DNA from: Dubosiella newyorkensis
GTDB lineage: Bacteria; Bacillota_I; Bacilli_A; Erysipelotrichales; Erysipelotrichaceae
Direction of reading: 5' to 3'
DNA: 32,000 nt
NCBI RefSeq assembly: GCF_001945605.1
Contig: NZ_MPKA01000067.1
Coordinates: forward strand, 89,519-121,518
The notes below the pieces were generated by a model. That model was not told where the DNA came from. It made no database searches and saw only the letters and a program-made list of their open reading frames with translations. Numbering within the stretch: position 1 is the stretch's first letter; each line of letters starts with the position of its first letter. Below, one piece after another: positions 2,423 to 29,893 of this stretch. A program made the translations under genes and the position numbers.

Positions 2423-2447
2423 AAAAAAAAGACCCGTTCTCCGGGTC
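2423..2447 (-). terminator. Intrinsic terminator closing the 11-gene filament/signalling operon
   Basis: The minus strand reads GACCCGGAGAACGGGTC followed by TTTTTTTT. The stem is 6 bp GC-rich with a 5 nt loop, and it overlaps the PocR stop codon. Confidence 0.8.
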
Positions 2448-2934
2448 ATTCGCAAAGCGTTTTGTAGTAAGAAAGAAGCGCCAATAAAAGCTGAATACTG
2501 TCGTTGACTTCTTCTTCATCCATTTCCACGATCTTCTCGTAATTTTGCATCATGATCTCTTTTGGCAGATCGTATTTCACAACGATATACTCGATCCAGC
2601 GTTCCTTGTCTTCGATTTGCTGAGAAGTGATGACGCCCTCCGAGACGATAACGCCTTTCACATCCTCAAAGTCTACAGGAACCGACCATTTCACTAGACC
2701 AGCGTGGCATGAATACATTTGGATCTCGTTTTTTCCTAACGCATTCGTATAATTCTCTATAGTGCAAGCTTCGCAATGTTCGAGCGCTTTATTACTCATT
2801 TTAATGCACTTGCAAAAGAAGTTTTTCTCCTTCGCGCTATCCACATCGCCAATATCTTGAACAAAATATGAGCGAAGACCTGTTATTTGATGATAGAAAT
2901 CCATTGCTTTTTGAATTGCTTCCAATGATCTCAT
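2446..2934 (-). CDS. Stand-alone PocR sensory-domain protein (no output domain)
   Basis: PocR hallmarks are present: FFCKC...HCEAC and YSCHAGLVKWSVPV...KGVIVSEGV. At 162 aa it has no HTH or kinase domain. Confidence 0.7.
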   Translation of the reverse strand: MRSLEAIQKAMDFYHQITGLRSYFVQDIGDVDSAKEKNFFCKCIKMSNKALEHCEACTIENYTNALGKNEIQMYSCHAGLVKWSVPVDFEDVKGVIVSEGVITSQQIEDKERWIEYIVVKYDLPKEIMMQNYEKIVEMDEEEVNDSIQLLLALLSYYKTLCE

Positions 2935-2995
2935 AATCCTAAATCCCTCCGATTCGTATTCTTTTCTTTTATTTAACCACAGAATGAAAGCGTAT

Positions 2996-5458
2996 TCAAG
3001 ATATGGAAGGCGCAGACAAATATTTCCGCAACATCTGCATCACCAAAGCGATATCGATCGGCTTTGGAATATGGGCATTCATGCCCGCTTCTTTCGCGCG
3101 GGTCGCGTCTTCATTGAACGCGTCGGCCGTCATCGCCAAGATCAATACATCCGCATCCGCCCTCTTGGAATGGCGGATCCTTTTCGCCGCCTCATAACCA
3201 TCCATGTTCGGCATCCGGATATCCATCAAAATCGCGTCATAATAGCCGACCGAACTCGATTCGAAAAGATCGAGCGCCTCTTTTCCATCCTTCGCCCGCT
3301 CCAAAAGCAAACCTCGCTCCTCGAGAAGATCGTGCGCGATCTCATAATTGAGCTCGTTATCTTCCGCGATCAAGATCCGCTTTCCAGCAAGAGAACTATT
3401 CTCTTCCTTCTTTTCCACTTCCTTTTCTTCAAGCGTAAAGAACGGCTGTATCCCTTCATATAAAGAAGAAGGAAACAGAGGCTTTTGAATAAATCCATCA
3501 ATACCCGCCTCTTTGGCTTGGCTTTGGATCTCCGAAAAATCATAAGCCGAAATCAAAATGATCGGGATCGGCTCGGCCACCTGTGCACGGATCCTTTTCG
3601 CCAATTCGATCCCATCGCAAGATGGCATCTTCCAGTCGAGAAGAACCACATCATAGTGCTTCTCCTTGAGCTTGTTCAGCGCCTTGTTCACATCGATATA
3701 GGATTCCAAAGAAATTCCCATCTGTTCGAGCGATTCCGACACCGTTTCGAGAAAGAGCGGATCATCATCGATCACCATGAGATTGAGCGGAGGCAAAGAA
3801 ACAACCGTTCCTTGTGCGCTGGCCTTCTTCAGATCCAAAATGACATGGAACTGGCTGCCCGAGCCGATCTCACTTTCGATCAAGATCTGTCCGCCCATCG
3901 CGTCAATAATATGTTTCGTGATCGCCATTCCTAAACCACTGCCCTCTGTATGATCCACGACCTGGCTTCTTTCGCGCGTGAAAGAATCATAGATCTTGGC
4001 GATAAATTCTTTCGACATGCCAATACCCGTATCTTCCACGACCATATGAAGACGAATGAATTCAGGCTTGTCCTCTAAGGCCTCTTCTCGTAAGCTTACC
4101 GTGATCCGTCCGCCCTCTGGCGTAAATTTGATCGCGTTCGATAATAAATTCATAAAGATCTGGGACATCCGCACAGAATCGCCATATACGTTTTCATACT
4201 CCACGTTGCTCAAAAGCACATCAAAATCTTGATGCTTCGCGAGAACTTGGGGCTGAGCGATCGCCACAATGTCCCCCACAAGCTCTTTGAGCGATAAAAC
4301 TTCATATTGCAGCGTCAATTTGCCGCTTTCGATCTTCGACATATCGAGCACATCGTTGATCAAACTCAAAAGATGCTTACTCGACTGCATGATCTTCAAA
4401 AGACAATGCTTCACTCGATCTCTATCCTCTTCATGCGCCAATGCGATCGTCGTCATTCCCATGATCCCATTCATTGGCGTCCGGATATCGTGCGACATTT
4501 TTGACAAGAATTCGCTTTTGGCGTTGCTAGCCACCATAAGCTTGTCATTTAAGATCCGAAGCTGCTCGATCTGACGCTTCGAGAACCGATAATATTGATA
4601 AAATCCGATCAATAAAACGCCAAAGATCAAGACAGAACCAAGACCGATCCAAAAGATCGTCTTCATGTTCAACCCATTGATCAAATCGTTGATCACGCCA
4701 AAAGGCATCGTCGTGATCAAATACGATTTTGTATACGGCAAAGGCGTCGCATAGATCCGGATCCTTTCTCCATGCTCCGTCCAGACATTCGAATACGTCT
4801 CGTTTTTCTCCATCGCTTGCTGTAGACCTTTGACATCTTCGGATTTCCAACGATCAAAATAAGACCCATTGAAACCGTCGTCCGAATCGCGGATCACATA
4901 CGAGCCATCGTTGGCAATGATCAAGCTCGCCACCGGACTTTTCTCTTCCGGCTTAAATAGACGAGCCGCCAAGTCGGTAGCCGGAATCTCGCCCACTAAA
5001 GCTTTTCCACGATACGGGATCCCAAAAGCGATCACTCTCCCGTTTTGAGAGGTGCCTGTGCGAACGACGATCTCGCCATCTTGGATCCCCTTCAAAAAAG
5101 AAGCTTTACTGTTGAGCTCGCTTGGATCGCCATAGAGAAGATCTACATTTCCTTGACTATCGTAGATCGCCAAAGAACTCATCCCTTTTGTCTTGGCGCT
5201 CTCGATCATATCGGCTTGATCTTCATTCAAGCCGATCTCCGCGAGTTGGTCCAGCCTTGTCTCTACGATCGTCTCGAAATGCTGGACATTTTTATCGCTG
5301 ATCCCTTCCATATAAATGTTTCCGATTTCAGTGATCGTCTTCACGCTATCGTGCTGCAGGACATAGATCAAGCCAGTCATGATGGCTACACTCAACACGA
5401 TGAACCCAATAAAACAAAGGAGCATCGGCTTTAATGAAAAATTCTTTTGTTCATTCAT
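2996..5458 (-). CDS. Hybrid sensor histidine kinase: TM, approx 230 aa extracytoplasmic Cache-like domain, TM, HisKA, HATPase_c, REC, REC
   Basis: H-box is MSHDIRTPMNGI and the G-boxes are DTGIGM and GSGLGM. Two receiver domains carry acceptor Asp residues in VLLDWKMP and ILMDIRMP. Two hydrophobic segments flank a Cache-like region. The ATG overlaps the Hpt stop (ATGA). Confidence 0.9.
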   Translation of the reverse strand: MNEQKNFSLKPMLLCFIGFIVLSVAIMTGLIYVLQHDSVKTITEIGNIYMEGISDKNVQHFETIVETRLDQLAEIGLNEDQADMIESAKTKGMSSLAIYDSQGNVDLLYGDPSELNSKASFLKGIQDGEIVVRTGTSQNGRVIAFGIPYRGKALVGEIPATDLAARLFKPEEKSPVASLIIANDGSYVIRDSDDGFNGSYFDRWKSEDVKGLQQAMEKNETYSNVWTEHGERIRIYATPLPYTKSYLITTMPFGVINDLINGLNMKTIFWIGLGSVLIFGVLLIGFYQYYRFSKRQIEQLRILNDKLMVASNAKSEFLSKMSHDIRTPMNGIMGMTTIALAHEEDRDRVKHCLLKIMQSSKHLLSLINDVLDMSKIESGKLTLQYEVLSLKELVGDIVAIAQPQVLAKHQDFDVLLSNVEYENVYGDSVRMSQIFMNLLSNAIKFTPEGGRITVSLREEALEDKPEFIRLHMVVEDTGIGMSKEFIAKIYDSFTRERSQVVDHTEGSGLGMAITKHIIDAMGGQILIESEIGSGSQFHVILDLKKASAQGTVVSLPPLNLMVIDDDPLFLETVSESLEQMGISLESYIDVNKALNKLKEKHYDVVLLDWKMPSCDGIELAKRIRAQVAEPIPIILISAYDFSEIQSQAKEAGIDGFIQKPLFPSSLYEGIQPFFTLEEKEVEKKEENSSLAGKRILIAEDNELNYEIAHDLLEERGLLLERAKDGKEALDLFESSSVGYYDAILMDIRMPNMDGYEAAKRIRHSKRADADVLILAMTADAFNEDATRAKEAGMNAHIPKPIDIALVMQMLRKYLSAPSIS

Positions 5459-5802
5459 ATTTTCTCGATCGCTTGAATCGCCCGCTCATACACGGGCACA
5501 GTTTCCTCAAAAACAAGCACGCCCTGCTCATCCCATTCATGCCGCAAGAGATCCGATAATTGATTGGCTTGCATATACAGATCGTGCATGCCTAAATTCT
5601 GGCATACCCCTTTCAGTGTGTGGGCCGCCAAAAACGCTTGTTCCCGATCTTTGTTTTGGATCGCTTCCTGCAATGAAGCAAAGCTAGGATCGTCGATAAA
5701 TTTCTTTAAAAACTTCACGATCATCTTATCGCTTGGAAGTCGCTTTCGGACCTCCTCGTACGAACCTCCTAATTCCTTAAAACAATCTTTTAATGTATAC
5801 AT
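5455..5802 (-). CDS. Hpt (histidine phosphotransfer) domain protein
   Basis: The 115 aa protein has the phosphorylatable-His motif AAHTLKGVCQNLG. AAGGAG RBS lies 6 nt upstream. Confidence 0.8.
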   Translation of the reverse strand: MYTLKDCFKELGGSYEEVRKRLPSDKMIVKFLKKFIDDPSFASLQEAIQNKDREQAFLAAHTLKGVCQNLGMHDLYMQANQLSDLLRHEWDEQGVLVFEETVPVYERAIQAIEKI

Positions 5803-5803
5803 C

Positions 5804-7843
5804 CTACTCTCCTTTATAGATTTTTAGACAACCGCGGCCGCTCCGCTTCGCTTCATAAAGCATAAAATCCGCCACATTGAACAAATCGTCAAAATTCCGT
5901 TTGATATATTCTGTACTTGCCACACCCATACTGATCGAAATCGGAAACCCTTTATAAGAGCCACTGCTGATCGTATGGAAGATCCGGTCCATGATCGTCT
6001 CCAAATTCCCTGGATATTGAAGCATGATCAAAAACTCATCGCCGCCGATCCGCCCGGCAATATCGAGCTTGCGGATCGAGCCTTGGATCCGTTTGGCTAA
6101 ATAAGCAAGCACCTCGTCTCCAAAGGCGTGTCCATATTCATCGTTGGCGTTTTTGAAAAAATCAAGATCAAGGATCGCAATCGCGTACTCCATCATTTCG
6201 TCCGCTTCCTCGAGCCGTTTTTTCACTTGGATCTGGGTATAATTCTTATTTAAAAGACCAGTCAATTCATCGATCGAAGCGCTTCGCTCCAACATCTCGT
6301 GCGTCATCTTTTGAGAATGGATATCCAAAAGCAAGCCTAAATAGCCACGCACATCTTTTGGATCCTTTTCATGATAGAGCGGATGCAAAATGATCCGCCA
6401 CCAATGCGGCTCTCCGCCATGCTCCGTCGAAAAATTAAAATCGATATCGTCCTCTTTCCCTTTTGAACATTCGATCTCGTGCAGGATCCGATCTATATTT
6501 TCTTTTCCTAGCTTTTCAAGCAAAAGAGGATCGTGCTGCGGATCCAGGATCGAAGAAGGGATCTCGTATTTTTTCGCCATCGAAGACGAGATCGTCAAAA
6601 ACATCGGATCGAGCGAGATCTCAAAACGGATCTCCTGAGTCTTCTCTGAATAAAACGTATACGAGATCTGATCGCGCTTCGAAATCAGATCAAGCGCTTC
6701 TGCCGCAAAATCATCCCGCAACGAAGGCGTCAAGATCGGATCGGTGCATAAATCAAGGAACTCGCGCCGATCGCTGATGACCTCCATCTTTGCCATCTGC
6801 ACGATCTCTTTGAGCTCCTTTTGCACCGTCGGATCTTTGAGCACTTGCAGAAGCAACGGATTGAAGCAGCCACATTCGCCATTCAAGATCATATCGATCG
6901 CTTTTTGCGGAGGGAACGCTTTCTTATAGACACGCTCCATCGTCAGCGCGTCATAAACGTCCGCGATCGCGACCACTTGCGCGCTGATCGGGATCTCGCT
7001 TCCCTTCAGGCCATCCGGATACCCGCTTCCATCAAAGCGTTCATGGTGCCATCTGGCGATCTGCTTTGAAACGATCATAAGCGGTTCGTTGCGATAATTC
7101 GGCACTTTATTCAAAATGTCATATCCGTTTTTGGCGTGCTTCTTGATCTGCTCGAATTCTTCTGGATCGAGGCGAGAGGGTTTGTTTAAGATCTTGGAAG
7201 GCACTGTGATCTTTCCGACATCGTGCAAGGAAGAAGCGAGCGCGATCTGCTCGATCGTCTCATTGTCCAATTTGAGTTGCGGATCGATCTCGGTCAGCTT
7301 TTTTAAAAGGACTTTCGTGATCTGCCGCACATTCAAGACGTGCTGTCCGCTCTCCTCGTTTCTAAATTCGACAATATGCGACAAGATGTTGATGAGCATG
7401 TCGCTTTGCTTGCCTTGCTCCTTAACCTGCTTTTGGACAAGGTATTGGAGCCGTTTTTGTTTGGCGTGCGCCAAGATCGTATTTTCGACACGATGTCGAA
7501 CGATCGAGACATTGAACGGGCGAACGATAAAATCAAAAATCCCATATCCATACGCTTGATCGATAAACTCGCCATCGCTCTCTGCCGTGATCATGATGAT
7601 TGGGATCTGGCTTAGCCAACCTCTTTGTTTCATGATCTTCAAAAACTCAAAACCATTCATGTGCGGCATATAGTAATCCAGCAAGATCAAAGAAATCCCA
7701 TGCGGATCTTTTTCCACGACTTGAAGGCCCTCGAATCCGTTATCCGCTTTGATGATTTCATATTGCTCCTCCAAGATCTCGCTGAGCATCTCCTGATTGA
7801 AGGCCGAATCATCGACGATCAATATTTTTGGCTTTTGATCCAT
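5804..7843 (-). CDS. Response regulator with REC, HD-GYP phosphodiesterase, PAS-like linker and GGDEF diguanylate cyclase domains
   Basis: REC: ILIVDD...LILLDYYMP. HD-GYP: LHDVGK...HHERFDGSGYPDGL. GGDEF: GRIGGDEFLI, with an RxxD I-site (RKLD) exactly 5 residues upstream. Confidence 0.9.
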   Translation of the reverse strand: MDQKPKILIVDDSAFNQEMLSEILEEQYEIIKADNGFEGLQVVEKDPHGISLILLDYYMPHMNGFEFLKIMKQRGWLSQIPIIMITAESDGEFIDQAYGYGIFDFIVRPFNVSIVRHRVENTILAHAKQKRLQYLVQKQVKEQGKQSDMLINILSHIVEFRNEESGQHVLNVRQITKVLLKKLTEIDPQLKLDNETIEQIALASSLHDVGKITVPSKILNKPSRLDPEEFEQIKKHAKNGYDILNKVPNYRNEPLMIVSKQIARWHHERFDGSGYPDGLKGSEIPISAQVVAIADVYDALTMERVYKKAFPPQKAIDMILNGECGCFNPLLLQVLKDPTVQKELKEIVQMAKMEVISDRREFLDLCTDPILTPSLRDDFAAEALDLISKRDQISYTFYSEKTQEIRFEISLDPMFLTISSSMAKKYEIPSSILDPQHDPLLLEKLGKENIDRILHEIECSKGKEDDIDFNFSTEHGGEPHWWRIILHPLYHEKDPKDVRGYLGLLLDIHSQKMTHEMLERSASIDELTGLLNKNYTQIQVKKRLEEADEMMEYAIAILDLDFFKNANDEYGHAFGDEVLAYLAKRIQGSIRKLDIAGRIGGDEFLIMLQYPGNLETIMDRIFHTISSGSYKGFPISISMGVASTEYIKRNFDDLFNVADFMLYEAKRSGRGCLKIYKGE

Positions 7844-7845
7844 AC

Positions 7846-8901
7846 TTATCGGACCTTTCTTTGAAAGGCGATCGGATCTTGGACAAAGCCGAGCGCCTTT
7901 TCCTTTGAGACGATTTTATTTCGCACCAGTTCTGCGATCGAATCGTCCATCGAGATCATTCCTTGTTCTTTGGAAGTATGGATCACGTTGTTGATCTGGA
8001 AGATCTTGCCTTCCCGGATCAAATTCGCGATCGCCGGAGTCACGATCATGATCTCGAAAGCAGGATGCAGCTTGCCATCTTCTCCAGGAATGAGCTGCTG
8101 CGAGACGACCGCTTTGAGCACCATCGAAAGCTGTACCCGGATCTGCGATTGCTGATTGGGCGGAAAGGCGTCGATGATGCGGTCGATCGTCTTGGCCGCC
8201 CCTAACGTATGCAAGCTCGACAAGAGCAGCTGTCCTGTCTCGGCGGCGCTGATCGCCGTTTGGATCGTTTCAAAATCACGCATTTCTCCAAGCAAGATCA
8301 CATTGGGCGTTTGTCGAAGCGCGGCCCTTAGCGCCGCGGCATAATCCTTGGTATCGAGCGAGATCTCTCTTTGCGAGATCAAAGAACGCTTATGCGAATG
8401 GATGAATTCGATCGGATCTTCAAGAGTGATGATATGCCCACCCTTATTTTCGTTGATACGATCGATCAAGCACGCTAAAGTGGTCGACTTTCCGCTTCCC
8501 GCAGGCCCTGTGACCAGCACCATTCCATTTTTTGTGTTGGCCAGCTCTAAGATCGAAGGCAAGATTTCCATATGCTTTGGATCTGGCAAGCCAAAAGGGA
8601 CGACCCGTACGACGCAGGCAAAAGAGCCTCTTTGTTTATAGGCATTGCATCGAAACCGTCCAAGAGAAGGAATGGCGAACGAAAAATCATCATCGCCGCT
8701 TTTTTTCAGCGTTTCTTTGTCGCGATCTGCTATTTTATAAATCTGGTCGATCCACATCGAAGAATCGCTGGGCATGATTTTCTTTTCAAAGAGCGGTTTC
8801 AATTTCCCTTCGGATTTGACTTGGATCGTGGCGCCCGGAATGATAAAAAGATCCGAACTTTTCTGAAGGATCGCTTCCTTCAAGATCTCTGAAATATCCA
8901 T
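7846..8901 (-). CDS. pilT: PilT-family type IV pilus (retraction-type) ATPase
   Basis: Walker A is GPAGSGKST; also HIITLEDPIEF and LLGEMRDFETI. The PilT-specific motif AIANLIREGK is present. I chose the start at ATG 8899-8901 (AGGAG upstream, 2 nt after the preceding stop). The track ORF extends to 8952 without support. Confidence 0.9.
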   Translation of the reverse strand: MDISEILKEAILQKSSDLFIIPGATIQVKSEGKLKPLFEKKIMPSDSSMWIDQIYKIADRDKETLKKSGDDDFSFAIPSLGRFRCNAYKQRGSFACVVRVVPFGLPDPKHMEILPSILELANTKNGMVLVTGPAGSGKSTTLACLIDRINENKGGHIITLEDPIEFIHSHKRSLISQREISLDTKDYAAALRAALRQTPNVILLGEMRDFETIQTAISAAETGQLLLSSLHTLGAAKTIDRIIDAFPPNQQSQIRVQLSMVLKAVVSQQLIPGEDGKLHPAFEIMIVTPAIANLIREGKIFQINNVIHTSKEQGMISMDDSIAELVRNKIVSKEKALGFVQDPIAFQRKVR

Positions 8902-8903
8902 GC

Positions 8904-9269
8904 TTACTTCTCCTTTCCGTCCCATACTGGAATATGGGTGTCTTCGATCCAATCGGCTTTAGATTCGATCGTTTCCTTTTTGATTTGTACGCCTCCTGCC
9001 TCATTCACAAGCAAGACTTGAAGAACGCGGTTATCATCGATCGGGATCGTCACGCTCTCTTGAAAAGGCTCTTCCCCTCTCTCCATCCTCAAGCGTTTGA
9101 TTTCTAGCTCGCTGATCGCTTCATGATACGCTTTAGAGGAGGCGATCGCTTGATCCACACGGGTATCTTGCATCTTGGCCGAATACAGCCCGAGCGTTCC
9201 AAAACAAATGAGCGCGAGCACTAAGGCGATCAGCACAAAAGACGCCGTTCCAATTCCTTTATTTCGCAT
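8904..9269 (-). CDS. Small N-terminally anchored pilin-like protein (ComGG/PilX-like architecture), 121 aa
   Basis: N-terminus is MRNKG-IGTASFVLIALVLALICFG: a basic leader ending in Gly, then a hydrophobic helix, with no Glu at +5. AAGGAG lies 6 nt upstream of the ATG at 9267-9269. It overlaps the upstream gene by 11 nt. Confidence 0.6.
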   Translation of the reverse strand: MRNKGIGTASFVLIALVLALICFGTLGLYSAKMQDTRVDQAIASSKAYHEAISELEIKRLRMERGEEPFQESVTIPIDDNRVLQVLLVNEAGGVQIKKETIESKADWIEDTHIPVWDGKEK

Positions 9270-9636
9270 CGCCATCTCCTTGTCCTTTGACCTTGCTTTC
9301 AAGATGGATCAATTCTTGATCTTGAAAAGACAATCTCAGATCGATCGTATGCAGGCCCTCTTCGTAAGAAGTCTTCTTTTCGAGAACATACTTTCCGTCT
9401 TCATCTTCTTCCATATAGGCGTCCATCCGGACCTGAAAATCTCGCCCTTCTTGTGGGTCGATCCGATACGCTTCGATCAGCTCCCCCATATAGATCTGGC
9501 CATAGCTTTTCGCTTGGGCCCTCTCATGGATCAAAAAGGTCTTGGCGTAGAGCTGGACGATCACCACCGAAGCGAGCGCAAAAAAGAAAAGAATGATGAT
9601 CATTTCCATAAAGCTCGCGTTCCGATTTTTTTTCAC
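9259..9636 (-). CDS. Small pilin-like protein with a degenerate prepilin signal, 125 aa
   Basis: GTG start with AAGGAG 7 nt upstream. N-terminus is KKNRNASFMEMIIILFFFALASVVIV, which resembles the KGFTLIEMLIVL class III signal, but Gly-1 is replaced and the Glu position is shifted. Confidence 0.6.
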   Translation of the reverse strand: MKKNRNASFMEMIIILFFFALASVVIVQLYAKTFLIHERAQAKSYGQIYMGELIEAYRIDPQEGRDFQVRMDAYMEEDEDGKYVLEKKTSYEEGLHTIDLRLSFQDQELIHLESKVKGQGDGDAK

Positions 9637-9640
9637 GATC

Positions 9641-10072
9641 TCACTCCTTTCTTTGATGGACTAAGCGTTGTTCTTTCCCTTCTCGATTTCTTAAAATGAT
9701 CTCGAACCGGCCATTTTCTTCTTCCACGATAAAACCAGGAAGCGATACGATCTTTTCTTGCGGTTTTTTTTCAAATGGCAGCTCGGAAAGAGCGCTCCAT
9801 TCGTAGAGCGTTCCATCGATCTCGTAGATATACGTCGAATATCCATCGTATTGAAGGCAGAGCGCTCCATTTTCGATCTGAATATCCTCGTATCCGTTCC
9901 GCAATTTATTTTGAATATATAAATAGGCGGTCCGCAGGTTGTTGGACGCCTCGTCTTGCGAGGTGATCGTTCCATACACACGTGTACCTAGAAGGACAAG
10001 GATCAGCGAGAACAAGACGAACAAGCCATAAAGCGTAAAGATGAAAAAATCTTGCCAGCTTCTCTTCTTCAT
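9641..10072 (-). CDS. Small N-terminally anchored minor-pseudopilin-like protein (ComGF/GspJ-like architecture), 143 aa
   Basis: ATG at 10070-10072 with GGAGG 9 nt upstream, 2 nt after the preceding TGA. A single TM helix (FFIFTLYGLFVLFSLILVLL) is followed by a beta-rich domain. Confidence 0.6.
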   Translation of the reverse strand: MKKRSWQDFFIFTLYGLFVLFSLILVLLGTRVYGTITSQDEASNNLRTAYLYIQNKLRNGYEDIQIENGALCLQYDGYSTYIYEIDGTLYEWSALSELPFEKKPQEKIVSLPGFIVEEENGRFEIILRNREGKEQRLVHQRKE

Positions 10073-10074
10073 CT

Positions 10075-10368
10075 TCAATTTCCTCCTCGCTCGATCACGA
10101 TGATCCGCGGCCGCAAGTTTTCTGCGAGCACTTCGTAGCGAACGATATATCGCTCTGCATCATAATGGATCGACTCGTCGCTAAGCAGCTCCTGCAAGCT
10201 AGCCGGATAGCGGCCCTCTAAAGCGTATTGGTTGACGATCGCTTCCTCCAAGCTTTCTTGAAGCAGCTTGGTCGATTCGCTGCTAGTCTTTGCGCTGATC
10301 AAGCCGATCGCGAAAATAGCGATCGCGATGATCGAGAAAAGCGCGAGCCCTAAACGAAATTTACGCAT
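10075..10368 (-). CDS. Small pilin-like protein, candidate major subunit, 97 aa
   Basis: N-terminus is MRKFRLG-LALFSIIAIAIFAIGLISA. It is followed by EAIVNQYALEGRYPASLQELL, which is very similar to the conserved GspG/type IV pilin segment (helix, then x-Y-x-x-x-G-x-YP-x-x-L-x-x-L). GGAG RBS is present. Confidence 0.65.
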   Translation of the reverse strand: MRKFRLGLALFSIIAIAIFAIGLISAKTSSESTKLLQESLEEAIVNQYALEGRYPASLQELLSDESIHYDAERYIVRYEVLAENLRPRIIVIERGGN

Positions 10369-10377
10369 ACCTCGCTC

Positions 10378-11424
10378 CTAGCCCATCGAAAGCATGAGCG
10401 AGATCAGCGGCAGCATCGTCGAAAGAAGGATGCCGCCAACGATCAGTGTCAGCAGCGCCACGATTGTTGGCTCGACGATCGATACGATATGCTCGATCCC
10501 TTCATCGACTCGCTTTTCATACAAATCGGAAAGCTCCATAAAGACTTGGTCGACTTGGCCTGTTTCGTTGCCGACTTCGATCATTTTTTCTTGAAGGGGA
10601 GCGAAAAGATGGGAGGCTTCGATCGCTTGATCGAAATCATTGGTTTTCAAAAATGTCTCATAGCACGTTTTCGCTTGTTTTTGAGAGCTTGCTGTCGGCA
10701 TAAAGCGCGGCAGAAGCTCGATCGTCTCCTCTAAGGAGTATCCGCTTCTTAGCGCCATCGACACGACTTGTGAAAAACGCTGAGCGGCTTGGGCTTCAAA
10801 GATATGGTGCAATGGCGGAATAAAGCGCGCCGCCTTGAGCAAGATCTCTTTACCTTGATGGCGTTTATATAAAATATAAAGGAGGATGGCCGCGATTCCG
10901 ATCAATGCTGTCAAGACAAGGATGGCGTAGCCGATCCCGATCCCGATATTCAAGATCGGCGTTTCTTCTTGGGAAATCCCTAGGTTTTCATAGACGCGGA
11001 TAAAGACTGGGATCACCTGGATGACCATCACGCCAATGACGATCGCCATCATGAATAAAAGAATGAGCGGATAGGTCAAAGCGGAGCGAAGCGTTTCTTT
11101 CAAGCGGGCTTCTTTTTTATAGTATTCGGAAAGAAGATGAAGGACGCTTTCTAAATTGCCTGTCAGTTCGGCGATCTTGATCATTTGCAGAAAATAAGCG
11201 GGGAAAGCGTTTGTTTCTTTGAACGCTTCATACATCGTTTTTCCTTGCTTGATGTAGGTGTTGATCGTTTCTAACAGGGCCCCGTATTCGCTTTGACGAT
11301 ACGAGGAAGCGAGAATATCGATCCCATCGTAAAAGAGGATCCCCGATCGTAAGATCATCGAGCATTGGGAACATAAAATAGCGAGTTGTTCGGCGCTCAT
11401 CGTGTATTTTGATTTTGTTGGCAT
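10378..11424 (-). CDS. Type II secretion system F family (PilC/GspF/ComGB-like) inner-membrane platform protein
   Basis: Two T2SSF repeats (e.g. LTYPLILLFMMAIVIGVMVIQVIPVF and EPTIVALLTLIVGGILLSTMLPL). ATG at 11422-11424 with AGGAGG 8 nt upstream. The track's TTG at 11430 is too close to the RBS. Confidence 0.9.
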   Translation of the reverse strand: MPTKSKYTMSAEQLAILCSQCSMILRSGILFYDGIDILASSYRQSEYGALLETINTYIKQGKTMYEAFKETNAFPAYFLQMIKIAELTGNLESVLHLLSEYYKKEARLKETLRSALTYPLILLFMMAIVIGVMVIQVIPVFIRVYENLGISQEETPILNIGIGIGYAILVLTALIGIAAILLYILYKRHQGKEILLKAARFIPPLHHIFEAQAAQRFSQVVSMALRSGYSLEETIELLPRFMPTASSQKQAKTCYETFLKTNDFDQAIEASHLFAPLQEKMIEVGNETGQVDQVFMELSDLYEKRVDEGIEHIVSIVEPTIVALLTLIVGGILLSTMLPLISLMLSMG

Positions 11425-11426
11425 GC

Positions 11427-12287
11427 TCAATACCTCCTGTCTTCTATATAGTCTTCGGTTTTGTTTTTATTGTTTTTGCCATAGGTCGGATCGTACCATG
11501 TCCATTCGCCATCGATCTCGACTTGGTTCCAGGCATGATAGATCCCTTCGCTGGATAGATCCCCCATCACAAGGCGGGTCGGGATATTTTGGGCGCGCAG
11601 CATCGCGGCCATAAGGGCGGCATAGTCGAAGCAGATCCCTTTTTTTTCTTGAAGCACTTGTTCAAGATTGGGGATATAGCCCGCCTGGACATTGGCGGCC
11701 TTTTCGTTGTCGTAATCCATGTATTGGATGAGGTAGTTATAGATGGCGTCGATCTTTTCTTGATCGCCCTCGAGTCCATCGCACAGATCGTACGACAATA
11801 AAATGGCGGGATATTCGTGGGTATACCACACGAATTGATTGGGAAAGACAAAAACGCGGTCCTCCTGTTTTTGTTGAACAGATAGATCTTCCGAATAGAT
11901 CTGGGCGTATTTGTTGTCTTGTATATTTTGATAAAACGTGATCGAATATTCACCATTTCCCATCTGCAGTGGGAAAACGCTGTATTCCATATTGGAAGGG
12001 AGAGTATAGGTGTATTGGTCGGTGCCAAGCTGGATGCGGCATTTCAGCTTCGCATCAAAAGGCTGGAGCGTCCGGACCATGACATAGCCATCGCTCGTGT
12101 TGGAGGCGTCGATCTCGATCTGGCCATTCGATAAGACGACTTCGTTCGAAGAAGAAGGCTCGTTGATCGTGATCTCGCCTTTGTAGATCGAACCCGGCTC
12201 GATTTCTTGAAATTTTGTAGACTGAGAGGAGCAAGCGCTAAAAAAAAGACAAAAAAGCGCGAGGATCCATCGATATACACGCCACAT
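11427..12287 (-). CDS. Transglutaminase-like cysteine protease-fold lipoprotein
   Basis: Lipobox is LFFSAC after a signal peptide. A Cys-His-Asp triad is present in KKGICFDYAALMAAMLRAQNIPTRLV, YHAWNQV and WYDPT. Confidence 0.85.
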   Translation of the reverse strand: MWRVYRWILALFCLFFSACSSQSTKFQEIEPGSIYKGEITINEPSSSNEVVLSNGQIEIDASNTSDGYVMVRTLQPFDAKLKCRIQLGTDQYTYTLPSNMEYSVFPLQMGNGEYSITFYQNIQDNKYAQIYSEDLSVQQKQEDRVFVFPNQFVWYTHEYPAILLSYDLCDGLEGDQEKIDAIYNYLIQYMDYDNEKAANVQAGYIPNLEQVLQEKKGICFDYAALMAAMLRAQNIPTRLVMGDLSSEGIYHAWNQVEIDGEWTWYDPTYGKNNKNKTEDYIEDRRY

Positions 12288-12316: not shown

Positions 12317-12345
12317 AATATAACATATTTCACCCTTTTTAGCAA
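12317..12345 (-). promoter_or_regulatory. Sigma-A-type promoter of the filament/signalling operon
   Basis: The minus strand reads TTGCTA, a 17 nt spacer, then TGTTATATT (extended -10), about 30 nt upstream of the transglutaminase ATG. It is the only good promoter match in the 147 nt intergenic region. Confidence 0.6.
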
Positions 12346-12402: not shown

Positions 12403-12438
12403 CAAAAAAAATAGAAGATGAACTCTTTCATCTTCTAT
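12403..12438 (-). terminator. Intrinsic terminator of the uvrA-hprK-trxB unit
   Basis: Perfect 12 bp stem ATAGAAGATGAA/TTCATCTTCTAT with a 4 nt loop, followed on the minus strand by T8. It overlaps the trxB stop. Confidence 0.85.
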
Positions 12439-13343
12439 TCACGAACTCTTCGAAAAGCCATTTGGCCAACTAAGGCGCCTTCGCCTGTCGCGGTCACGAC
12501 TTGTCTGAGCTGCTTGTCGACAATATCCCCTGCCGCGTACAAGTTTTTCACGCTCGTTTCCATGTCGCGGTCGACCATCACGTAGCCATGCTCATTGGTT
12601 ACACCTAGATCTTTGACGGCTTCGCTTAAAGGATCGGAGCCGATATAAGGGAAGATCCCCGCGCATTCGATCGTTTTTTCTTCGCCTGTCTTCACGTTTT
12701 TGATCACGATGCCTTTGACGATCTCATCAAAGAGCACTTTTACTGGCACGTGCTCGCGGATGATCTCGATCTTGTCGTTGTGCTCTACATCGTATTGAAG
12801 CTTGGATTCGGCCCGGAATTGATCGCGCCGGATGACGATATAGATCTTATTGACGAACTGCGTCAAATAAATCGATTCCTCAAGCGCGGAGTTTCCGCCC
12901 CCGATCACGACGACATCTCTTCCTCGAAAGAAGGCGCCATCGCAAACAGCGCAATACGAAACGCCTTTCCCGATGCCTTCCTGTTCGCCAGGAATGTTCA
13001 TCATCCGCTCTTTCGTTCCGGTCGCGAAAAGGACAGCTTTAGCTTTGATCGTATTTCCATCTTTTAAATGGATCGTTTTGTCTTCATCGACCTTTTCGAC
13101 TTCTCCAGCCACATAGTCGGCGCCAAAAGCGAGCGCTTGATCGAACATCGTCATCGCCAGCTCCGCGCCTCCCATTTCTTTGATGCCTGGATAATTTTCG
13201 ATATGATACGTTTTTAACAGCTTTCCGCCTGGAGCGCCCGCTTCGATGATGCATGTATCGAGTCCGGCACGAGAGGCGTACAAGGCCGCGCTCATGCCTG
13301 CAGGTCCAGCGCCCACGATCACAAATTCATATTCTTTTTTCAT
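12435..13343 (-). CDS. trxB: Thioredoxin-disulfide reductase
   Basis: FAD motif is VGAGPAGMSAA, the redox-active motif is CAVCDG, and the NADPH motif is VIGGGNSALEE. I chose the start at ATG 13341-13343 (AGGAGG upstream). The track's 28 aa basic extension would overlap hprK. Confidence 0.92.
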   Translation of the reverse strand: MKKEYEFVIVGAGPAGMSAALYASRAGLDTCIIEAGAPGGKLLKTYHIENYPGIKEMGGAELAMTMFDQALAFGADYVAGEVEKVDEDKTIHLKDGNTIKAKAVLFATGTKERMMNIPGEQEGIGKGVSYCAVCDGAFFRGRDVVVIGGGNSALEESIYLTQFVNKIYIVIRRDQFRAESKLQYDVEHNDKIEIIREHVPVKVLFDEIVKGIVIKNVKTGEEKTIECAGIFPYIGSDPLSEAVKDLGVTNEHGYVMVDRDMETSVKNLYAAGDIVDKQLRQVVTATGEGALVGQMAFRRVRE

Positions 13344-17288: not shown

Positions 17289-20200
17289 TTAAAGGATATC
17301 CTTTCTCTTTTTCCAAAGGAGTCCAATGCCCAACAAGCTCAAAATAAGCAGGCTTGTCCATGCAAGATGGTTGGTTTGAGCGGCCGTGTTGGCGCTTGTC
17401 GGTTTGGTTGGCGTGCCGTTTTTCGAAGAGGCCGGCGTACCAGGCTCTACGGAAACGGTGACTTCATTGGTAGGAACGCGCTGATCTTGATAGAGCAGGA
17501 CGCCCGTGTTGATCCAGGCGCTGTTTTGAGTCACGACTGGGATCTTCACTTTAAAGGATACATCGACGCTTTCGTCAGGAGCGAGGTGATCGATCTTCCA
17601 TCTCACGATACCGTTTTCGATCGTTCCATCATGATCGATCGAGTTAGGAACAAAGCGAAGTCCTTGCGGAATCGCGTCTTTGACTTGCAGATCACGCACT
17701 TCTTCTTTTCCTCGATTCTGGATGCGGAGGATGTAGGTGATCGTATCGTCGATATGCGCTTTGATCCGGATCTTGGATGGTGTTCCATCGTTGTGGGCTT
17801 GCAGCTTTTCGATCGTGATATTTGGTTCTTCTTTTGGCGTTTCGATCTCGACTTCATTGGATGGAGTCGGCTCGTCTGGACGGGTCGATTCGCTCGCCTG
17901 CGCGATATTTTTCCAAAGTCCATCTTGAGCTGGGACTTCGATCGCGAAAGAGACGGTTCTTTCTGTTCCTGTCTTCATCGTGCCTAAATGCCATGTGATC
18001 GTGCCGTTTTCCACCACGCCATCGTCGGATACGCTGCCTTCGACAAGGATCAATCCGCTCGGTATCGTATCAGAGACGACCACATCGTTGGCATCGGCCT
18101 GTCCTGCGCTTGTGACTTTGATAAAGTAGGTGACGATATCTTTTTCATCGACGCTCAGCTTGTCTTTCGTTCGATTGCCTTCATTGCGTTTTTGCGATTT
18201 TTCGATCTTAAGGCTTGGAGCGAACGTTTCGACTTCGACTGGTGGCGTCTTCTTTGGTTCTGGTTCTTCGTCATCGTAAGCGGAGGCGACATTGATCCAT
18301 CGCGTATATTCTTTGACGGCTGGCACTTTGACTTGGAACGACACCGTTTTCTTTTCCTTAACGTTCAGGTTGGCGATCTTCCATGTGATCATACCCTCTT
18401 TTTCTTGGCCTTGATCGCTGATCGAGTCTTGAACAAGGCTCAAACCGTCTGGAACGATATCTTCGATGACGACATTGTGGACGGCCAGGTTTCCTTTGTT
18501 TTCGACGTCGATTTCATACGTGATCGTGTCCCCGGCTTTGGCTTGAAGCCTGCTTTGGGTGAAGGAGCCTCCATTTTTCGCTTGGCGTTTGAGGATTTCT
18601 AGATTTGGCGTATTGATCTCGATTTCGACTGGCGGCGTTTTGAATGGTTCTGGTTCGTCAGGATGACTGAGGCTTGCGATATTTTCCCAGCGAGTCGCCT
18701 CTTTGATGTCTGGAACTTTGACTTTGAACCACACTTCTTTTTCTTCGTTTGGTTCCAATGTACCGATGTTCCAAATGATCTCTCCTGTTTCAGAGCGTTC
18801 ATATGGATACGTTGGATCGATTTCCACAAGCTGCAGATCGCCATTTTCATGGGTCGGGATCGAGTCTTTGATCTGCACGTCATGGGCTGGCAGCGCGCTT
18901 TTATTGGTCGCTTTCAAATAGTAGGTGACAATATCTTGCGCTTTTCCATGAAGCAATTCTTTGTGCCGGTCTCCCTCGTTGAGTTTATGTTCTTTTTCAA
19001 GAACGACTTTTGGCGCGTCGGTCTCGACTTCGACTTTATTGGATGGGATATCGACTGGATCGCCTGTCTCTGGATTGTTTGGATTGTTGTCGTAATGCGT
19101 TTGGGCGCCATTCTCCCATAGTGTGTATTCCATCACGCTTGGAAGCTTCACCGTGAAGGTCACGGTTTTGGATTGTCCGATCTTGAGATCGCCGATTTTC
19201 CATGTGATCGTTTGCGTTTGCTTGTCGTACGATCCGTTGTCGCTTGCTTCTTGATAGTTCAAGAAGAGCGTGTGGGTTTTCTTATCGCTTGGTAGCGTGT
19301 CTTCAATGACGACATTTTTGGCGATCGCTTTGCCGGTGTTCGTAACCGTTAAACGATAGGTGAGCGTTTCGCCTATTTTCCCTGTGCGTCTTTGGGTCGT
19401 GAAGTCTGGATCGCTTTCGAGCTTTTGGTCTTTGAAGATCGTTAGTGCTGGCACATCGGTGGCGACTTCGACTTCATTGGAGTCTTTTGGCTCTTCCTCT
19501 TCATAGACGAGAGTGGCGATATTTTTCCAAGTCGTTTTTTGATCGACTTTTGGCACTTCGACGCTGAACGAGACTTGTTTGGTTTCTTCTGCTTCGATCG
19601 CGCCTAGATTCCAAAGGATCTGTTTTGTTTCTGGATCATAGATGCCTTGGTCGCTGATCGTATCTTGTTTCAATTCCAGTCCATTTGGCACGACATCTTT
19701 TACAAACACGTTTTCGATGGTATGCAGGCTTGGATTGTGGATCTTGAGCGTGTAGGTGACTAGATCGCCAGATTCAACAGCTTGGAATTGTTTTGTCATT
19801 TCTTGGTTGTTGATGGCTTGGAATTTTTCGATGTTCAATTCTTTGACGATCGTTTCGATATGGACCGTATTCGATTGTTTTGGCTCTTCGCCTTCGGCTT
19901 GCACGCTTCCTGTATTTGGCCAACGGGTGTCTTGTTCGACGATCGGCACTTGGATCTGGAACGATACGATTTTCGTTCCGCCTTTGGCTGGTAGTGTTCC
20001 AACATTCCAGCGCAGCGTGCGCGTCGCTTCGTCATACTTTCCTTCGTTGAAGGCTTTGACAAAGAGAAGGCCCTCTTCGATCGTATCGTTCACGATCACG
20101 TTTTTGGCTTCTTCTTCTCCTGTGTTGGTCACGACAAGATCGTAGGTGACTAGATCGCCAGGTCGTACTTGGAGCGGGTCGATACCATCATAGCGGATGT

Positions 20201-23200
20201 CTTGGCCGACAGATTCATATTTATGAATGCTCACATTTGGCTTGGCTGGTTCGGTTTCGACCGTCACTTTGTTAGATGGTTCTGGATCGATTTCGTCGGA
20301 TCTTACATAGGCGATGTTGGTCCACGTGTTGGATTGGTCGACTTTTGGCACTTGGACTTGGAATGTGAGCGTGCGGCTCGTTTGGGCGGCTAGATCGCCA
20401 ATATTCCATGTGATATTGCCTTCCTCATCGAGTGTGGCATCGACGAGCGACTGTTCTAAAAGGATCAGTCCATCTGGCACGTGGTCGGAAACGATCACGT
20501 TTTTAGCGATCGCATCTCCTGTGTTTTTGATCGTGAGCTTATAGGTCACGATATCGTTTGTTTCCACAGTTTCTTGATCACGTGTGAAGTTTTTGAAGTT
20601 GATCGATTGTTCTTTTTCGATCGAAAGTTGTGGTTTCTGGTCGATATTTTTATACGTGTTGGTGAATACGATCGTGTCGTTGGCTAATGGCTGATCGTTC
20701 ATATCGGTGTACTGGATCGAGTCGACGTGCAGCGTGCCCGAGCGCTGCGTGACGTTCACGATCGCTTTATAGTGGGTGGTTTCGTAGCTCATGCCCGAAA
20801 TTTGGTTGTTGATTTCTTGGATCTCATAGACGTAGCGTCCTGGCTTCGTGTAGGTGATCGCATCGAATTCGAAGCGTCCAAAGGCGTTATTTGTTGTTGT
20901 CGTTCTTTCTGGCAGCGGCGTGTCTTGGGCTGGCATCGTTTCGATTTCTTTCAGGCGTGTTGGCAGCTTGAGTTTTTTCTGCGCTTCATTTGGCGTGCTT
21001 CCGTTTCCCGTTTCTTCGATTGGCAAAGACGAACGATAGATGTGGAAGCTTTCGTCGAGTGGTTCTTCTTCGAATTCTTCTTGTTCGCTTGGCTCGTTTT
21101 GGATCGTTTGTTCCGTGTTTTCGAGCGATCTTTGACTTTCTGTTTCGGTTCCGATCGCCGAGATCTTGAACTGGAATTCTTGGCCTTTCATTTCGAAGAA
21201 GTCGCTGGCTGGATCCATGGTTTTGAATCCATGGATCTTCGCGTTGTCGGTGCTTGGTTTCAGGTTTCTGAATGTGACTTGCGCGTCTATGCCATTCGAG
21301 ATCGTTCCTTTGGCGCTACCGATCGTGTCGATGTGTAGATATTTATCGATCCAGCGATCTTTCGTGCGTTCCTCGATCGTATATGTGGCTTGTTGCCCTA
21401 GGCCATACACGATGAGGGTTTCCTCGTGTTTGAGCGAGAATTCCACTTTTCCATTGGCGTCGAGTTGGATCGTTTCCTCTTCGATCGTATTGGAGGTGAG
21501 GCGCTTGGTTTCTAGTGTTTGATTGGCGAGCACGGTTCCTAGATCGAGTTCGAATGGGAATTCAAAGTTGATGTCGGTTTCATCGAGTGTTTGGCCAGTG
21601 CCTGGGATCAATTGTTTGCTGATTCTTAAGCCGGCGTCGTTTGTAAAGACATGGTCTTGTTCTCGATTTTTTTCTTCGACGCGCAAAGTTCCATTTTCAT
21701 CTTTGACTTCGAGCATGTATTCGATCGGATCGAGCGCGTATTGGATCGTCTCATCTTTTCCTTCGACTTCTTGGATCGTCACGGAGTAGAGGCCTGGCTG
21801 TTCGAATTCGATGAGGGCAAAATTGATCGTTCCATCGGCGTTGTTTTTGGCTTGGCGATCGAAGGCGATCGTTGGATCGTCCACTTTTTCGACGTGCATC
21901 TTGAATTGGTAGGCGTCTTCTTGTAGCGAAGCGCCTAGAAGTTGTTTAAAGAGCGTTGGTCTCCAAGTTCCGCTTGGCTGGTACGTGTTGGTGAACTGGA
22001 TTGAGTCGACAATATTGTCTTCCGCTTTATTTTGTTTATAGATGGTCGGTGTGGCTTCCAAGTTCCCGTTTTCGTACGTGACTTGGATCGAGATCACATA
22101 TTCTTCGCTTGAATATTTGATGTGTTCGATCGAGCCTCGATGTTCTTTGACTACGTACTCGAACGTCTTTCCTGCGTGGCTTTGGTCAAAGATGATTGGG
22201 TCGAATGTCGTATTGACGATATGGGCGCCATTTCCTTGCACGCTCACTTGTTCATGTTCTGGCATTGGCGCCTCTGGCGTGATCGCTTCGAGTGTGAAGA
22301 CGAATTGATCAGTGGCTTCCATTGGGCGTCCGATCATGTTTTTGGTGACTGGGATCGCATAGCTTTCTTCTGGTTTGTAAGTATTGGTGAAGCTGATCGT
22401 TTCAACGTTTGTTGTCGGATTGGAATACGTTGGTTCCACGACAAGGGTTCCATTTCCTTGACTGACTTTGACTTGAACGGTGTATGTGGCAGGATCGTAG
22501 TTCATGCCAGATAGGCCGGTCGAAAGCTCTTTGATCGTATACGTATAGTCTCCTATTTTGGTGTAGGTGATCGGCGCGAATGTCGCTTCTACTTCGTTTC
22601 CACTTGTTGGCAAGATGGAAAGGATCGGATTGGTTGGCATTGGCGCGTCCTTTTCTCCTGTAATCTCAAATAAGAATCGATCGCCTTGGGTGAACGTTCT
22701 TCCTTCTAGTTTTTTCGTGACAGGAATTCGCAAGGTTCCTTTTGGCTGATACGTATTCGTGAAGGCGACTGGAGCGTCTTCGTTCACAACGGTTTCATTT
22801 TCTTTCACATCGAATGTGATCGTGGATCCTTCAAGTTTTGGCGTGAGTGTGATCGTATGGATTTGTGGATCATAGTTCATGCCTTGTTCTGTTCCGGCGA
22901 TCTCGTCGATCAAGAAGGTGTAAGACTGTCCTGTATCGACTTTGGTGAATGGGCCGATTTCAAAGCGGGCTTTGGATAAAGCTAGTTTTCCATCGACTAC
23001 TTGGGCGCTGATCGTTATTTCATCCTTGTCTGGAAGGAATCGTCTTGATTGCGCATTTCCTCGAATACGGAATGTAAAATTGTCCGATGCCAAAACTTCA
23101 CGTCCTTCGATCGTCTTTTCGATCGGGATGATCGTAGTGGCTGGAAGGACCGCGGTGTTTGTAAAGACGACTGGTGGTGTTCCTTCTTGGATCGTGCTTG

Positions 23201-28316: not shown

Positions 28317-28515
28317 TTTTCTTTTCCCTTTCTCTTCACGCAAAAAAACGCCTTTTTCGTATGAAAAGAGGCGCTTGTAAGCTATGTTATTGTTTAGTTA
28401 TTTTTTCTTCCCATACTTTCTATTGAAACCATCTTGATAGGATGTTCCTTTTTAGGGGAAGCTTGGAGCGATCCTATCTTGGTCGTTTCCTTATTGCTCA
28501 ATCGTTTATTTTCGT
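28317..28515 (-). promoter_or_regulatory. Approx 200 nt structured 5' leader of the adhesin gene (candidate attenuator or riboswitch, class unassigned)
   Basis: It lies between the candidate promoter and the ATG. It contains a perfect 8 bp inverted repeat GATAGGAT...ATCCTATC closing a 27 nt loop, and it ends in a strong terminator hairpin. No ORF is present. Confidence 0.5.
28342..28374 (-). terminator. Intrinsic terminator located inside the adhesin leader, approx 25 nt upstream of the start codon
   Basis: The minus strand reads CGCCTCTTTTC-ATAC-GAAAAAGGCG followed by TTTTTTT (10 bp stem with one bulge). There is no upstream minus-strand gene for it to terminate, because the neighbour is divergent. 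Confidence 0.7.
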
Positions 28516-29858: not shown

Positions 29859-29893
29859 AAATAGAGACGATCCTCATCGATCTTCTCTATTTT
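29859..29893. terminator. Hairpin between the convergent MFS and signal peptidase genes
   Basis: Stem AAATAGAGA/TCTCTATTT (9 bp) with an inner CGAT/ATCG pairing, and A/T-rich flanks on both sides. Confidence 0.55.

Follow-up and report, generated by a model that had tools for sequence, protein, structure and literature searches.

Type IV filaments are defined by pilins that carry a class III signal, by a dedicated prepilin peptidase, and by an assembly ATPase, and surveys for these systems rely on those hallmarks. In comG operons, which specify the Com pilus, the peptidase ComC is encoded elsewhere. We analyzed a 32,000-nucleotide stretch of the Dubosiella newyorkensis genome (RefSeq assembly GCF_001945605.1, contig NZ_MPKA01000067.1, positions 89,519 to 121,518 of the forward strand; hereafter the window, to which all coordinates refer), and we describe within it a gene cluster in which four consecutive small proteins, P1 to P4, are encoded between a PilC/GspF-like platform gene and the gene for a type IV filament ATPase. 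The cluster shares with the Com pilus a monoderm host, a compact operon with a single ATPase gene and a single platform gene, and four or five consecutive proteins of pilin size (approximately 100–145 amino acids, aa), as well as the lack of PilM/N/O genes and a peptidase that would lie outside the operon. By analogy, the Com pilus, with its peptidase supplied in trans, may be the described system that works most like this minimal monoderm machine. The two differ in that the cluster's ATPase belongs to the PilT family and is encoded last, its platform falls under the ComGB cut-off, its small proteins reach no ComG model and have a class III signal that is degenerate or absent, and a gene for a conserved transglutaminase-like lipoprotein heads the cluster.

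We propose that the cluster, which occurs in monoderm Firmicutes of the gut, encodes a so far undescribed variant of the type IV filament (T4F) superfamily, with P1 to P4 as its small bitopic subunits, a reading to which we assign an even chance. Under this proposal, the PilC-like platform and the PilT-family ATPase would form the membrane motor. P3, in which Glu5 is invariant and position −1 is a small residue, would be a true yet degenerate pilin, and P4, pilin-like but lacking Glu5, would compare with ComGG or a GspK-type protein; P1 and P2 would be further small subunits or accessories. The four proteins would be extracted from the membrane into a short pseudopilus or priming complex, and the transglutaminase-like lipoprotein, which appears catalytically intact, would work on the outer face of the membrane, with the subunits or the cell wall as its target.

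All four small genes lie on the minus strand: P1 at 10075–10368 (97 aa), P2 at 9641–10072 (143 aa, or 145 aa if an upstream TTG is used), P3 at 9259–9636 (125 aa, with a GTG start), and P4 at 8904–9269 (121 aa, or 132 aa if an upstream TTG is used). Because a Shine-Dalgarno sequence of the GGAGG/AGGAG type stands 6–10 nucleotides (nt) 5′ of each start and the intergenic spacing is only −11 to +9 nt, we take P1 to P4 to be real, coupled genes. Their lengths are identical in public gene calls on identical contigs, and conservation, the Shine-Dalgarno sites, and these gene calls argue against chance open reading frames (ORFs). Each protein has a short basic N terminus, a single hydrophobic segment, and a small soluble part. 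A sequence-only reading of the window had reported four consecutive small ORFs of these lengths at these positions; all are present, as are the strings it quoted from them (RLGLALFS, NASFMEMIIILFFF, NKGIGTASFVL, and EAIVNQYALEGRYPASLQELL).

The class III rule calls for a short basic leader, Gly (rarely Ala or Ser) at −1, hydrophobic residues at +1 to +4, Glu or Asp at +5, and at least 14 uncharged residues (PMC3244431). We applied it as a PilFind-type rule, [GAS]-x4-[DE] with 14 uncharged residues (PMC3244431), and all four window proteins fail it. Neither Pfam N_methyl (PF07963) nor NCBIfam TIGR02532 matched P1 to P4 at E ≤ 1, nor does either model appear in the E ≤ 10 family listings of 10 orthologues and of members of the family alignments. 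That P1 to P4 lack the canonical G-F-T-L-x-E signal, as the sequence-only reading had noted, is borne out. Its broader suggestion, that all four are pilin-like, holds clearly for P3 and plausibly for P4, and the genomic setting is one expected of pilin genes; P1 and P2 showed no sequence link to pilins.

The cluster is widespread. When metagenomes were scanned with a degenerate DNA pattern of 93 nt that represents the conserved stretch Y-A-x-x-G-x-Y-P-x-x-L ... Y-D ... Y of P1, at least 120 loci were recovered, mostly from the human gut, and each of them encodes a true P1 relative, a result that places the arrangement far above chance. The core cluster is common to more than 100 metagenomic and genomic loci. 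Among the related loci listed, the platform gene is the immediate upstream neighbor of P1 in 80 of 86, and the transglutaminase gene that of the platform gene in 61 of 66; the transglutaminase gene is as constant a cluster member as the platform gene itself. On the 3′ side of P1, relatives carry genes of approximately 165, 150, and 140–200 aa in series, and a PilT-like gene (351–369 aa) adjoins P4 in approximately 36–37 of 46 loci with sufficient DNA on that side, over-extended ORF starts included. At approximately nine of these 46 loci (L025, L038, L041, L047, L069, L076, L078, L080, and L086), P4 is the last gene of the cluster and its neighbor has the reverse orientation, so that the PilT-like ATPase must be encoded elsewhere or be absent there.

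Gene order is kept in Dubosiella muris, where platform identity is 45%–46%, and on metagenome contigs where it is just 29%–30%. Locus L009 displays the order from the transglutaminase gene to the start of the ATPase gene, and the shorter loci L012–L014 show parts of it. Exact-sequence look-ups placed P1 relatives in Blautia massiliensis, B. faecis, B. faecicola, Coprococcus comes, and Robinsoniella peoriensis, and further ones in Ruminococcus sp. and in metagenome-assembled genomes of Lachnospiraceae or Clostridia; the named relatives that we checked are all annotated "hypothetical protein" at NCBI. Word-seeded homologue searches with P1 and with P2 returned no match beyond the queries themselves. 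Of two scans of genome contigs with the platform protein as query, the first gave no match and the second D. muris only.

The ATPase, encoded at 7846–8901 on the minus strand (351 aa), is the only one in the cluster, and it is a genuine member of the hexameric PilT family. It scores 400.1 bits against TIGR01420 (pilT_fam, the PilT/PilU family; cut-off 319.1) versus 125.8 bits against the ComGA model, for which the cut-off is 300. Its residues 3–351 align with residues 4–352 of Aquifex PilT (2gsz_A, E = 2.4e-89), versus values of only approximately 1e-24 for PilB/GspE structures. The signature reads AIANLIRE in the window protein and AIRNMIR[DE] in most relatives. The inner-membrane platform, encoded at 10378–11430 on the minus strand (348–350 aa), has two T2SSF domains (Pfam T2SSF, E = 9e-41) and falls below the cut-off of every NCBIfam equivalog, with 124.7 bits against 240 for ComGB and 132–137 bits against 424–700 for the PilC and GspF equivalogs (PilC itself approximately 135 against 700). 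Its nearest canonical PilC proteins are 26%–28% identical. A Tad system was considered and rejected, as the ATPase and platform are not of the CpaF or TadB/C types.

Compared with the type IVa pilus, then, the cluster has in common a full-length PilT-type ATPase with an AIRNLIRE-like signature, a PilC-like platform with two T2SSF domains, and, in P3, a hydrophobic N terminus with Glu5. It differs in that the PF28597 region, which canonical PilC carries at its N terminus, is missing from the platform and in that no PilB-type ATPase, PilM/N/O, PilD, or canonical pilin is encoded in the cluster or in approximately 1 Mb of related neighborhoods. GspL/M and GspE-type ATPase genes are likewise absent from the cluster. 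A distant homologue of the platform (P0011, 28% identity) occurs at locus L011 in a canonical type IV pilus locus, where the genes for PilM, a PilO-like protein, a PilB-type ATPase (MshEN plus T2SSE), and a PilT-type ATPase form the standard arrangement.

Among the small proteins, P3 carries the evidence for a pilin, and its identity as a degenerate type IV pilin is clearly supported. In the window, its N terminus reads KKNRN|ASFME, with Asn at −1, Glu at +5, and approximately 20 uncharged residues thereafter; the sequence-only reading had correctly observed that a Glu is present and Gly at −1 is not. Family statistics here and below refer to representatives of less than 85% identity (P1, n = 62; P2, n = 59; P3, n = 51; P4, n = 44). 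Across the 51 P3 relatives, a basic leader precedes the consensus S-S|L-F-L-M-E-L-I-I-A-I-L-F-F-S-L-A-S-A-V-C, the Glu five residues after the −1 position is invariant, and position −1 holds Ser in 63%, Asn in 20%, and Gly in 12%. In both spacing and composition, the P3 N terminus matches a class III signal (G|F-T-L-I-E-L), except that its −1 position is degenerate. Consistent with this, 38 of the 51 relatives pass the PilFind-type rule, and 48 do so if Asn is allowed at −1; it is solely through its Asn that the window protein fails. A sensitive search of 1.84 billion representatives with P3 returned 18 relatives, all P3-like. The 16 sequences examined all keep the Glu, many of the relatives read R-N|P-A-L-[IV]-E-L, and no G|F-T-L-x-E pilin was reached among the 18.

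Comparisons of P3 with pilins of known structure point in the same direction without reaching significance. Among PDB sequences, the two best relevant matches of the P3 profile are Geopilin (9egp_A, E = 0.065) and Thermus thermophilus PilA5 (8qqj_J, E = 0.72); both are type IV pilins and both align in register, but neither match is significant. Recurring weak matches in NCBIfam are to ComGG (4 of 32 members, best E = 0.0012), PilA, ComGE, PilV, GspI, ComGF, and GspH. In hhalign, the profile gave probabilities of 7.6% with Escherichia coli GspG and 4.6% with GspI, which are likewise not significant. A single-sequence AlphaFold2 model (predicted local distance difference test, pLDDT, 67.5) consists of a 52-residue helix (H6–57) followed by four strands, a topology that, at modest confidence, fits the pilin lollipop of an approximately 50-residue α1 helix and an antiparallel β sheet. 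Foldseek found no PDB match to this model at E ≤ 0.001; the Streptococcus sanguinis minor pilin PilA (7o5y) ranked second, with a non-significant E of 0.23 and a template-modeling score of 0.29.

P4 retains another part of the signal. Its N terminus, MRNKGIG|TASFVLIAL, places before the hydrophobic stretch a Gly that is found in 100% of the 44 relatives, followed by [TAS]-[SAP]-S (89%)-[LI]-L-L. Its most frequent weak NCBIfam match is ComGG_2 (4 of 21 members, best E = 0.013), and hhalign pairs it with the P3 family at a probability of 77%. GspK, a pseudopilin of the type II secretion system (T2SS), lacks Glu5, and P4 resembles it in having no such Glu. We consider P4 plausibly a ComGG-like or tip-type pilin-like subunit. 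The wider likeness to the T2SS pseudopilins GspG–GspK, namely the idea that several small subunits make up a short pseudopilus, is conceptual only; in contrast to that system, the cluster reaches no T2SSG or Gsp model and encodes no GspE, GspL, GspM, or secretin.

The recurrence of ComGG_2 as the most frequent weak match of both P3 and P4, with ComGE and ComGF also appearing, bears on a second explanation, that the cluster is a highly diverged Com pseudopilus operon for DNA uptake in which P1 to P4 correspond to ComGC–GG and ComC is encoded elsewhere, as it is in Bacillus and Streptococcus. The monoderm host, the compact operon with its platform, single ATPase, and proteins of approximately 100–145 aa, and the absence of both PilM/N/O genes and a peptidase would all suit such an operon. 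We nevertheless regard this explanation as improbable. The cluster fails all tests of Com membership that we applied, namely the curated cut-offs for ComGA, ComGB, and ComGC–GG: its ATPase is a full-length PilT (400 bits, against 125.8 for ComGA), the platform scores about half the ComGB cut-off, and P1 has no similarity to ComGC. Further, the ATPase gene stands at the end, unlike in comG operons; the cluster also includes a transglutaminase lipoprotein and, in Dubosiella, a cyclic di-GMP (c-di-GMP) module, and we saw no comE or comF genes in the neighborhoods.

P2 was already named "DUF4860 domain-containing protein [Dubosiella newyorkensis]" by NCBI, and it exceeds the gathering threshold of Pfam DUF4860 (PF16152; 28 bits against 25), a family without assigned function; the score is 46.1 bits for the L007 orthologue and 47.0 bits for that of L009. 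It has a basic N terminus and a transmembrane helix followed by an α/β domain. The N terminus reads H-x-[IV]-D-x-L-F, and the polar residue at the start of the helix is Asp in 64% of the 59 relatives and Gln or Ser in 12% each. Its position between the platform gene and the PilT gene is constant.

P1 shares this plan, with a basic N terminus, one transmembrane helix, and a small α/β domain whose invariant residues are Y48, A49, G52, Y54, P55, L58, Y69, Y78, N84, and P87. In the family, a basic cytoplasmic tail of 15–20 residues (the N-terminal region lies at 10320–10368 in the window, minus strand) begins with M-x-R-F (R 60%, F 82%), and the transmembrane segment has strongly conserved positions (F 66%, F 87%, G 61%), aromatic ones among them. 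A single-sequence AlphaFold2 model of low confidence (pLDDT 56) comprises helices H4–27, H30–50, and H58–62 and strands E74–81 and E86–93, with a kink at residues 28–29, and gave no meaningful Foldseek match. Two claims of the sequence-only reading about P1 were not supported. The "close match" to the helix-to-globular transition of GspG is a short local resemblance between the P1 Y-P...L..L motif and the GspG α-β loop: hhalign aligned vEGxYPxsLxyL of the P1 profile with hhYPttnqgLesL of E. coli GspG at a probability of 0.7%, which is not significant. The cleavage site proposed at RLG-LALFS corresponds to an alignment position where most relatives have Ser or Pro. Against PDB sequences, the P1, P2, and P4 profiles gave chance matches only (flagellin, ACE2, ABC transporters), and NCBIfam held no ComG match for P1 or P2. 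Judged by sequence, P1 belongs to a new family.

Following its transmembrane segment, P1 has an S-x-S motif (G-[IV]-S-S-[ILV]-S in the family; I-S-A|K in the window) that could be a signal peptidase I site. This raises the possibility that P1 is a small Sec-secreted protein with a cleavable signal peptide, whose mature domain of approximately 65 residues is a substrate of the machine or the transglutaminase, or a partner of either outside the cell. The basic N-region and the small-x-small pattern after the hydrophobic stretch, with Ser at −3 in 52% and at −1 in 61% of relatives, are what such a protein would have; conserved hydrophobic positions together with a conserved cytoplasmic M-x-R-F would be unusual in a disposable signal peptide, and hhalign pairs the P1 hydrophobic segment with the α1 helix of P3. 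We give this idea little credence.

Several results weigh against the proposal that the cluster encodes a T4F variant. None of the four families contains a protein that reaches a curated model for pilins, such as N_methyl, TIGR02532, T2SSG, and the ComG equivalogs. The class III motif occurs, by the PilFind-type rule, in none of the 62 P1 relatives, in none of the 59 P2 relatives, and in none of the 44 P4 relatives, whose N-terminal motif contains no acidic residue; that P2 bears no cleavage motif had been recognized in the sequence-only reading. P2 has no match to a pilin-related profile, and the P1 profile has no link to PDB, Pfam, or NCBIfam and no similarity to ComGC. The likeness that hhalign detects between the families (79% probability for P1 with P3) lies mostly in transmembrane or helical segments and is perhaps compositional, and the structural evidence consists of single-sequence models of modest (P3) or low (P1) pLDDT. 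PilT-family ATPases are classically retraction rather than assembly motors, and approximately 9 of 46 loci lack an adjacent ATPase gene. Finally, the signature of A24 prepilin peptidases, G-x-G-D-[VIA]-K, is absent from the approximately 1 Mb of related neighborhoods.

The absence of the class III motif from P1, P2, and P4 would be expected if P1, P2, and perhaps P4 were membrane-resident alignment components, functional analogues of PilN/PilO or GspL/GspM that connect the platform and ATPase with the cell exterior, with only P3 or pilins encoded elsewhere being polymerized. PilN-type proteins have a conserved cytoplasmic peptide, which the M-x-R-F of the P1 tail recalls. The strongly conserved aromatic positions in the transmembrane segments are also in keeping with alignment components, and genes of the PilM/N/O type are otherwise missing from the cluster. 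Still, we regard this explanation as unlikely, given that no PilN, PilO, or T2SSM match appears among the Pfam and NCBIfam families listed at E ≤ 10, that soluble parts of 65–100 residues are small for the ferredoxin-like domains of PilN and PilO, that hhalign ties P1 and P4 to pilin-like P3 (77%–79%), and that protein sizes and order recall comGC–comGG of Bacillus subtilis. A direct identity of the small proteins with PilN, PilO, or GspM was rejected, as no such model was hit. The T4F variant that we favor and its alternatives are not all mutually exclusive.

How subunits of a T4F variant would be processed is a separate question, for which the sequence-only reading had offered two alternatives, a divergent prepilin peptidase or assembly of unprocessed subunits. 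No A24 prepilin peptidase gene is present in the 32-kb window, and the sole conserved polytopic membrane protein in the approximately 1 Mb of neighborhoods is the platform; a peptidase encoded inside the cluster was rejected, as there is neither an A24 signature nor a further conserved polytopic protein. Because comG operons are arranged alike, with ComC encoded at a distance, a missing nearby peptidase is no proof of absence. In known A24 enzymes, Gly is the strongly preferred −1 residue. The Ser or Gly found at this position in many P3 proteins could be compatible with cleavage; a large P3 subfamily reads Asn at −1 and Pro at +1, and these forms, like the motif-free P1 and P2, are probably incompatible with it. 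Since the signals are so degenerate, cleavage of the N terminus by a classical prepilin peptidase seems unlikely, at least for P1, P2, and the Asn/Pro forms of P3.

These signals, reading Ser or Asn at −1, Pro at +1, or no motif at all, are the reason for a bolder proposal, namely that the cluster exemplifies an unrecognized class of T4F-like nanomachine, widespread in Firmicutes of the human and mouse gut, in which the pilin-like subunits are assembled without classical processing, a PilT-family ATPase serves as the sole motor, and the transglutaminase is an obligatory extracellular partner that might, for instance, cross-link or trim subunits or open up the cell wall. We advance this tentatively, as possible but doubtful.

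The candidate partner is a lipoprotein of 286 aa with a transglutaminase-like (papain) fold, encoded by the first gene of the cluster (11427–12287, minus strand) and matching Pfam Transglut_core at 76.5 bits. Among 46 distinct relatives, the lipobox Cys is conserved in 98% and the catalytic triad C219, H251, and D266 in 91%–93%; the protein also has a conserved N-terminal domain without family assignment (D60, G67, Y68, P106, and Y127). These patterns suggest that it is probably an active extracellular enzyme. As it acts outside the membrane, it cannot cut a cytoplasmic leader. Its roles may be speculated to include cross-linking or trimming of subunits or local remodeling of the cell wall.

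On the minus strand of D. newyorkensis, the genes for the lipoprotein, the platform, P1 to P4, and the ATPase are followed by a regulatory module. A promoter-like site (TTGCTA-17-TATATT with an extended TG, a consensus match only) at 12317–12345, also on the minus strand, stands ahead of the cluster, just preceded by a strong terminator-like hairpin at 12409–12440 that ends trxB. The module (2446–7843) is made up of a response regulator that has both an HD-GYP and a GGDEF domain (5804–7843), an Hpt protein (5455–5802), a hybrid histidine kinase (2996–5458), and a PocR sensor (2446–2934), all on the minus strand, with gaps or overlaps of 2–4 nt up to the histidine kinase. A terminator-like hairpin at 2431–2447 marks its end; ahead of this we found no strong-stem terminator-like hairpin, only weak consensus matches inside genes. 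The c-di-GMP/two-component module is thus probably co-transcribed with the pilus-like cluster. The response regulator, Hpt, and histidine kinase genes recur, without PocR, in D. muris (L007), and the module is lineage-specific, not being conserved in most other lineages.

Across the related neighborhoods, the only other recurrent neighbors are regulators: two-component genes occur in 19 loci, and a gene for a SARP-like regulator lies near the cluster in approximately 10. In approximately 10–11 loci (including L058 and L113), a gene for a sigma-70 factor of the extracytoplasmic function (ECF) type lies on the same strand upstream of the transglutaminase gene, approximately 3.4 kb upstream of P1, and in approximately 9–10 others a small membrane protein, possibly an anti-sigma factor, is encoded in a similar position. 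The loci with an ECF factor or small membrane protein suggest a regulatory input unlike the c-di-GMP module of Dubosiella. Some insertions are lineage-specific. At L054, an extra gene (576 aa) is inserted between P4 and the ATPase gene; an ORF of 56–63 aa follows the ATPase gene at L016, L017, L064, and L133, and at the first three of these it is followed by a gene for a permease-like protein of approximately 460 aa with 10 transmembrane segments.

Two other minus-strand features of the window lie outside the cluster. One is a giant ORF (17289–28343, 3684 aa) just upstream of uvrA; given the FctA, CLIPPER, and DUF7601 repeat domains that public calls of the same gene list, its product may be an adhesin of very large size on the Gram-positive cell surface. 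The other, a 165-aa ORF at 29892–30389, approximately 20 kb from the cluster, has weak matches to Peptidase_S24 and S26 (signal peptidase I-like) and is probably unrelated to it.

Our literature searches on DUF4860, on Dubosiella with type IV pili, and on transglutaminases with T4F found no description of this cluster, no mention of DUF4860 in the library searched, and no report of DUF4860 proteins encoded between platform and PilT genes. The "generic" survey model of Denise et al. requires a recognizable major pilin (PMC6668835). Because the small subunits escape every pilin model, we infer that the cluster would be invisible to such surveys, common though it is in abundant gut commensals, including Blautia, Coprococcus comes, Robinsoniella, and Dubosiella. 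Should the cluster build a filament, DUF4860 and three unannotated protein families would gain a function, and three questions would become directly testable: whether cleavage after Gly at −1 is truly essential for pilin polymerization, whether a PilT-family ATPase can assemble as well as retract, and what an enzyme of the transglutaminase fold adds to a surface filament of a monoderm bacterium.

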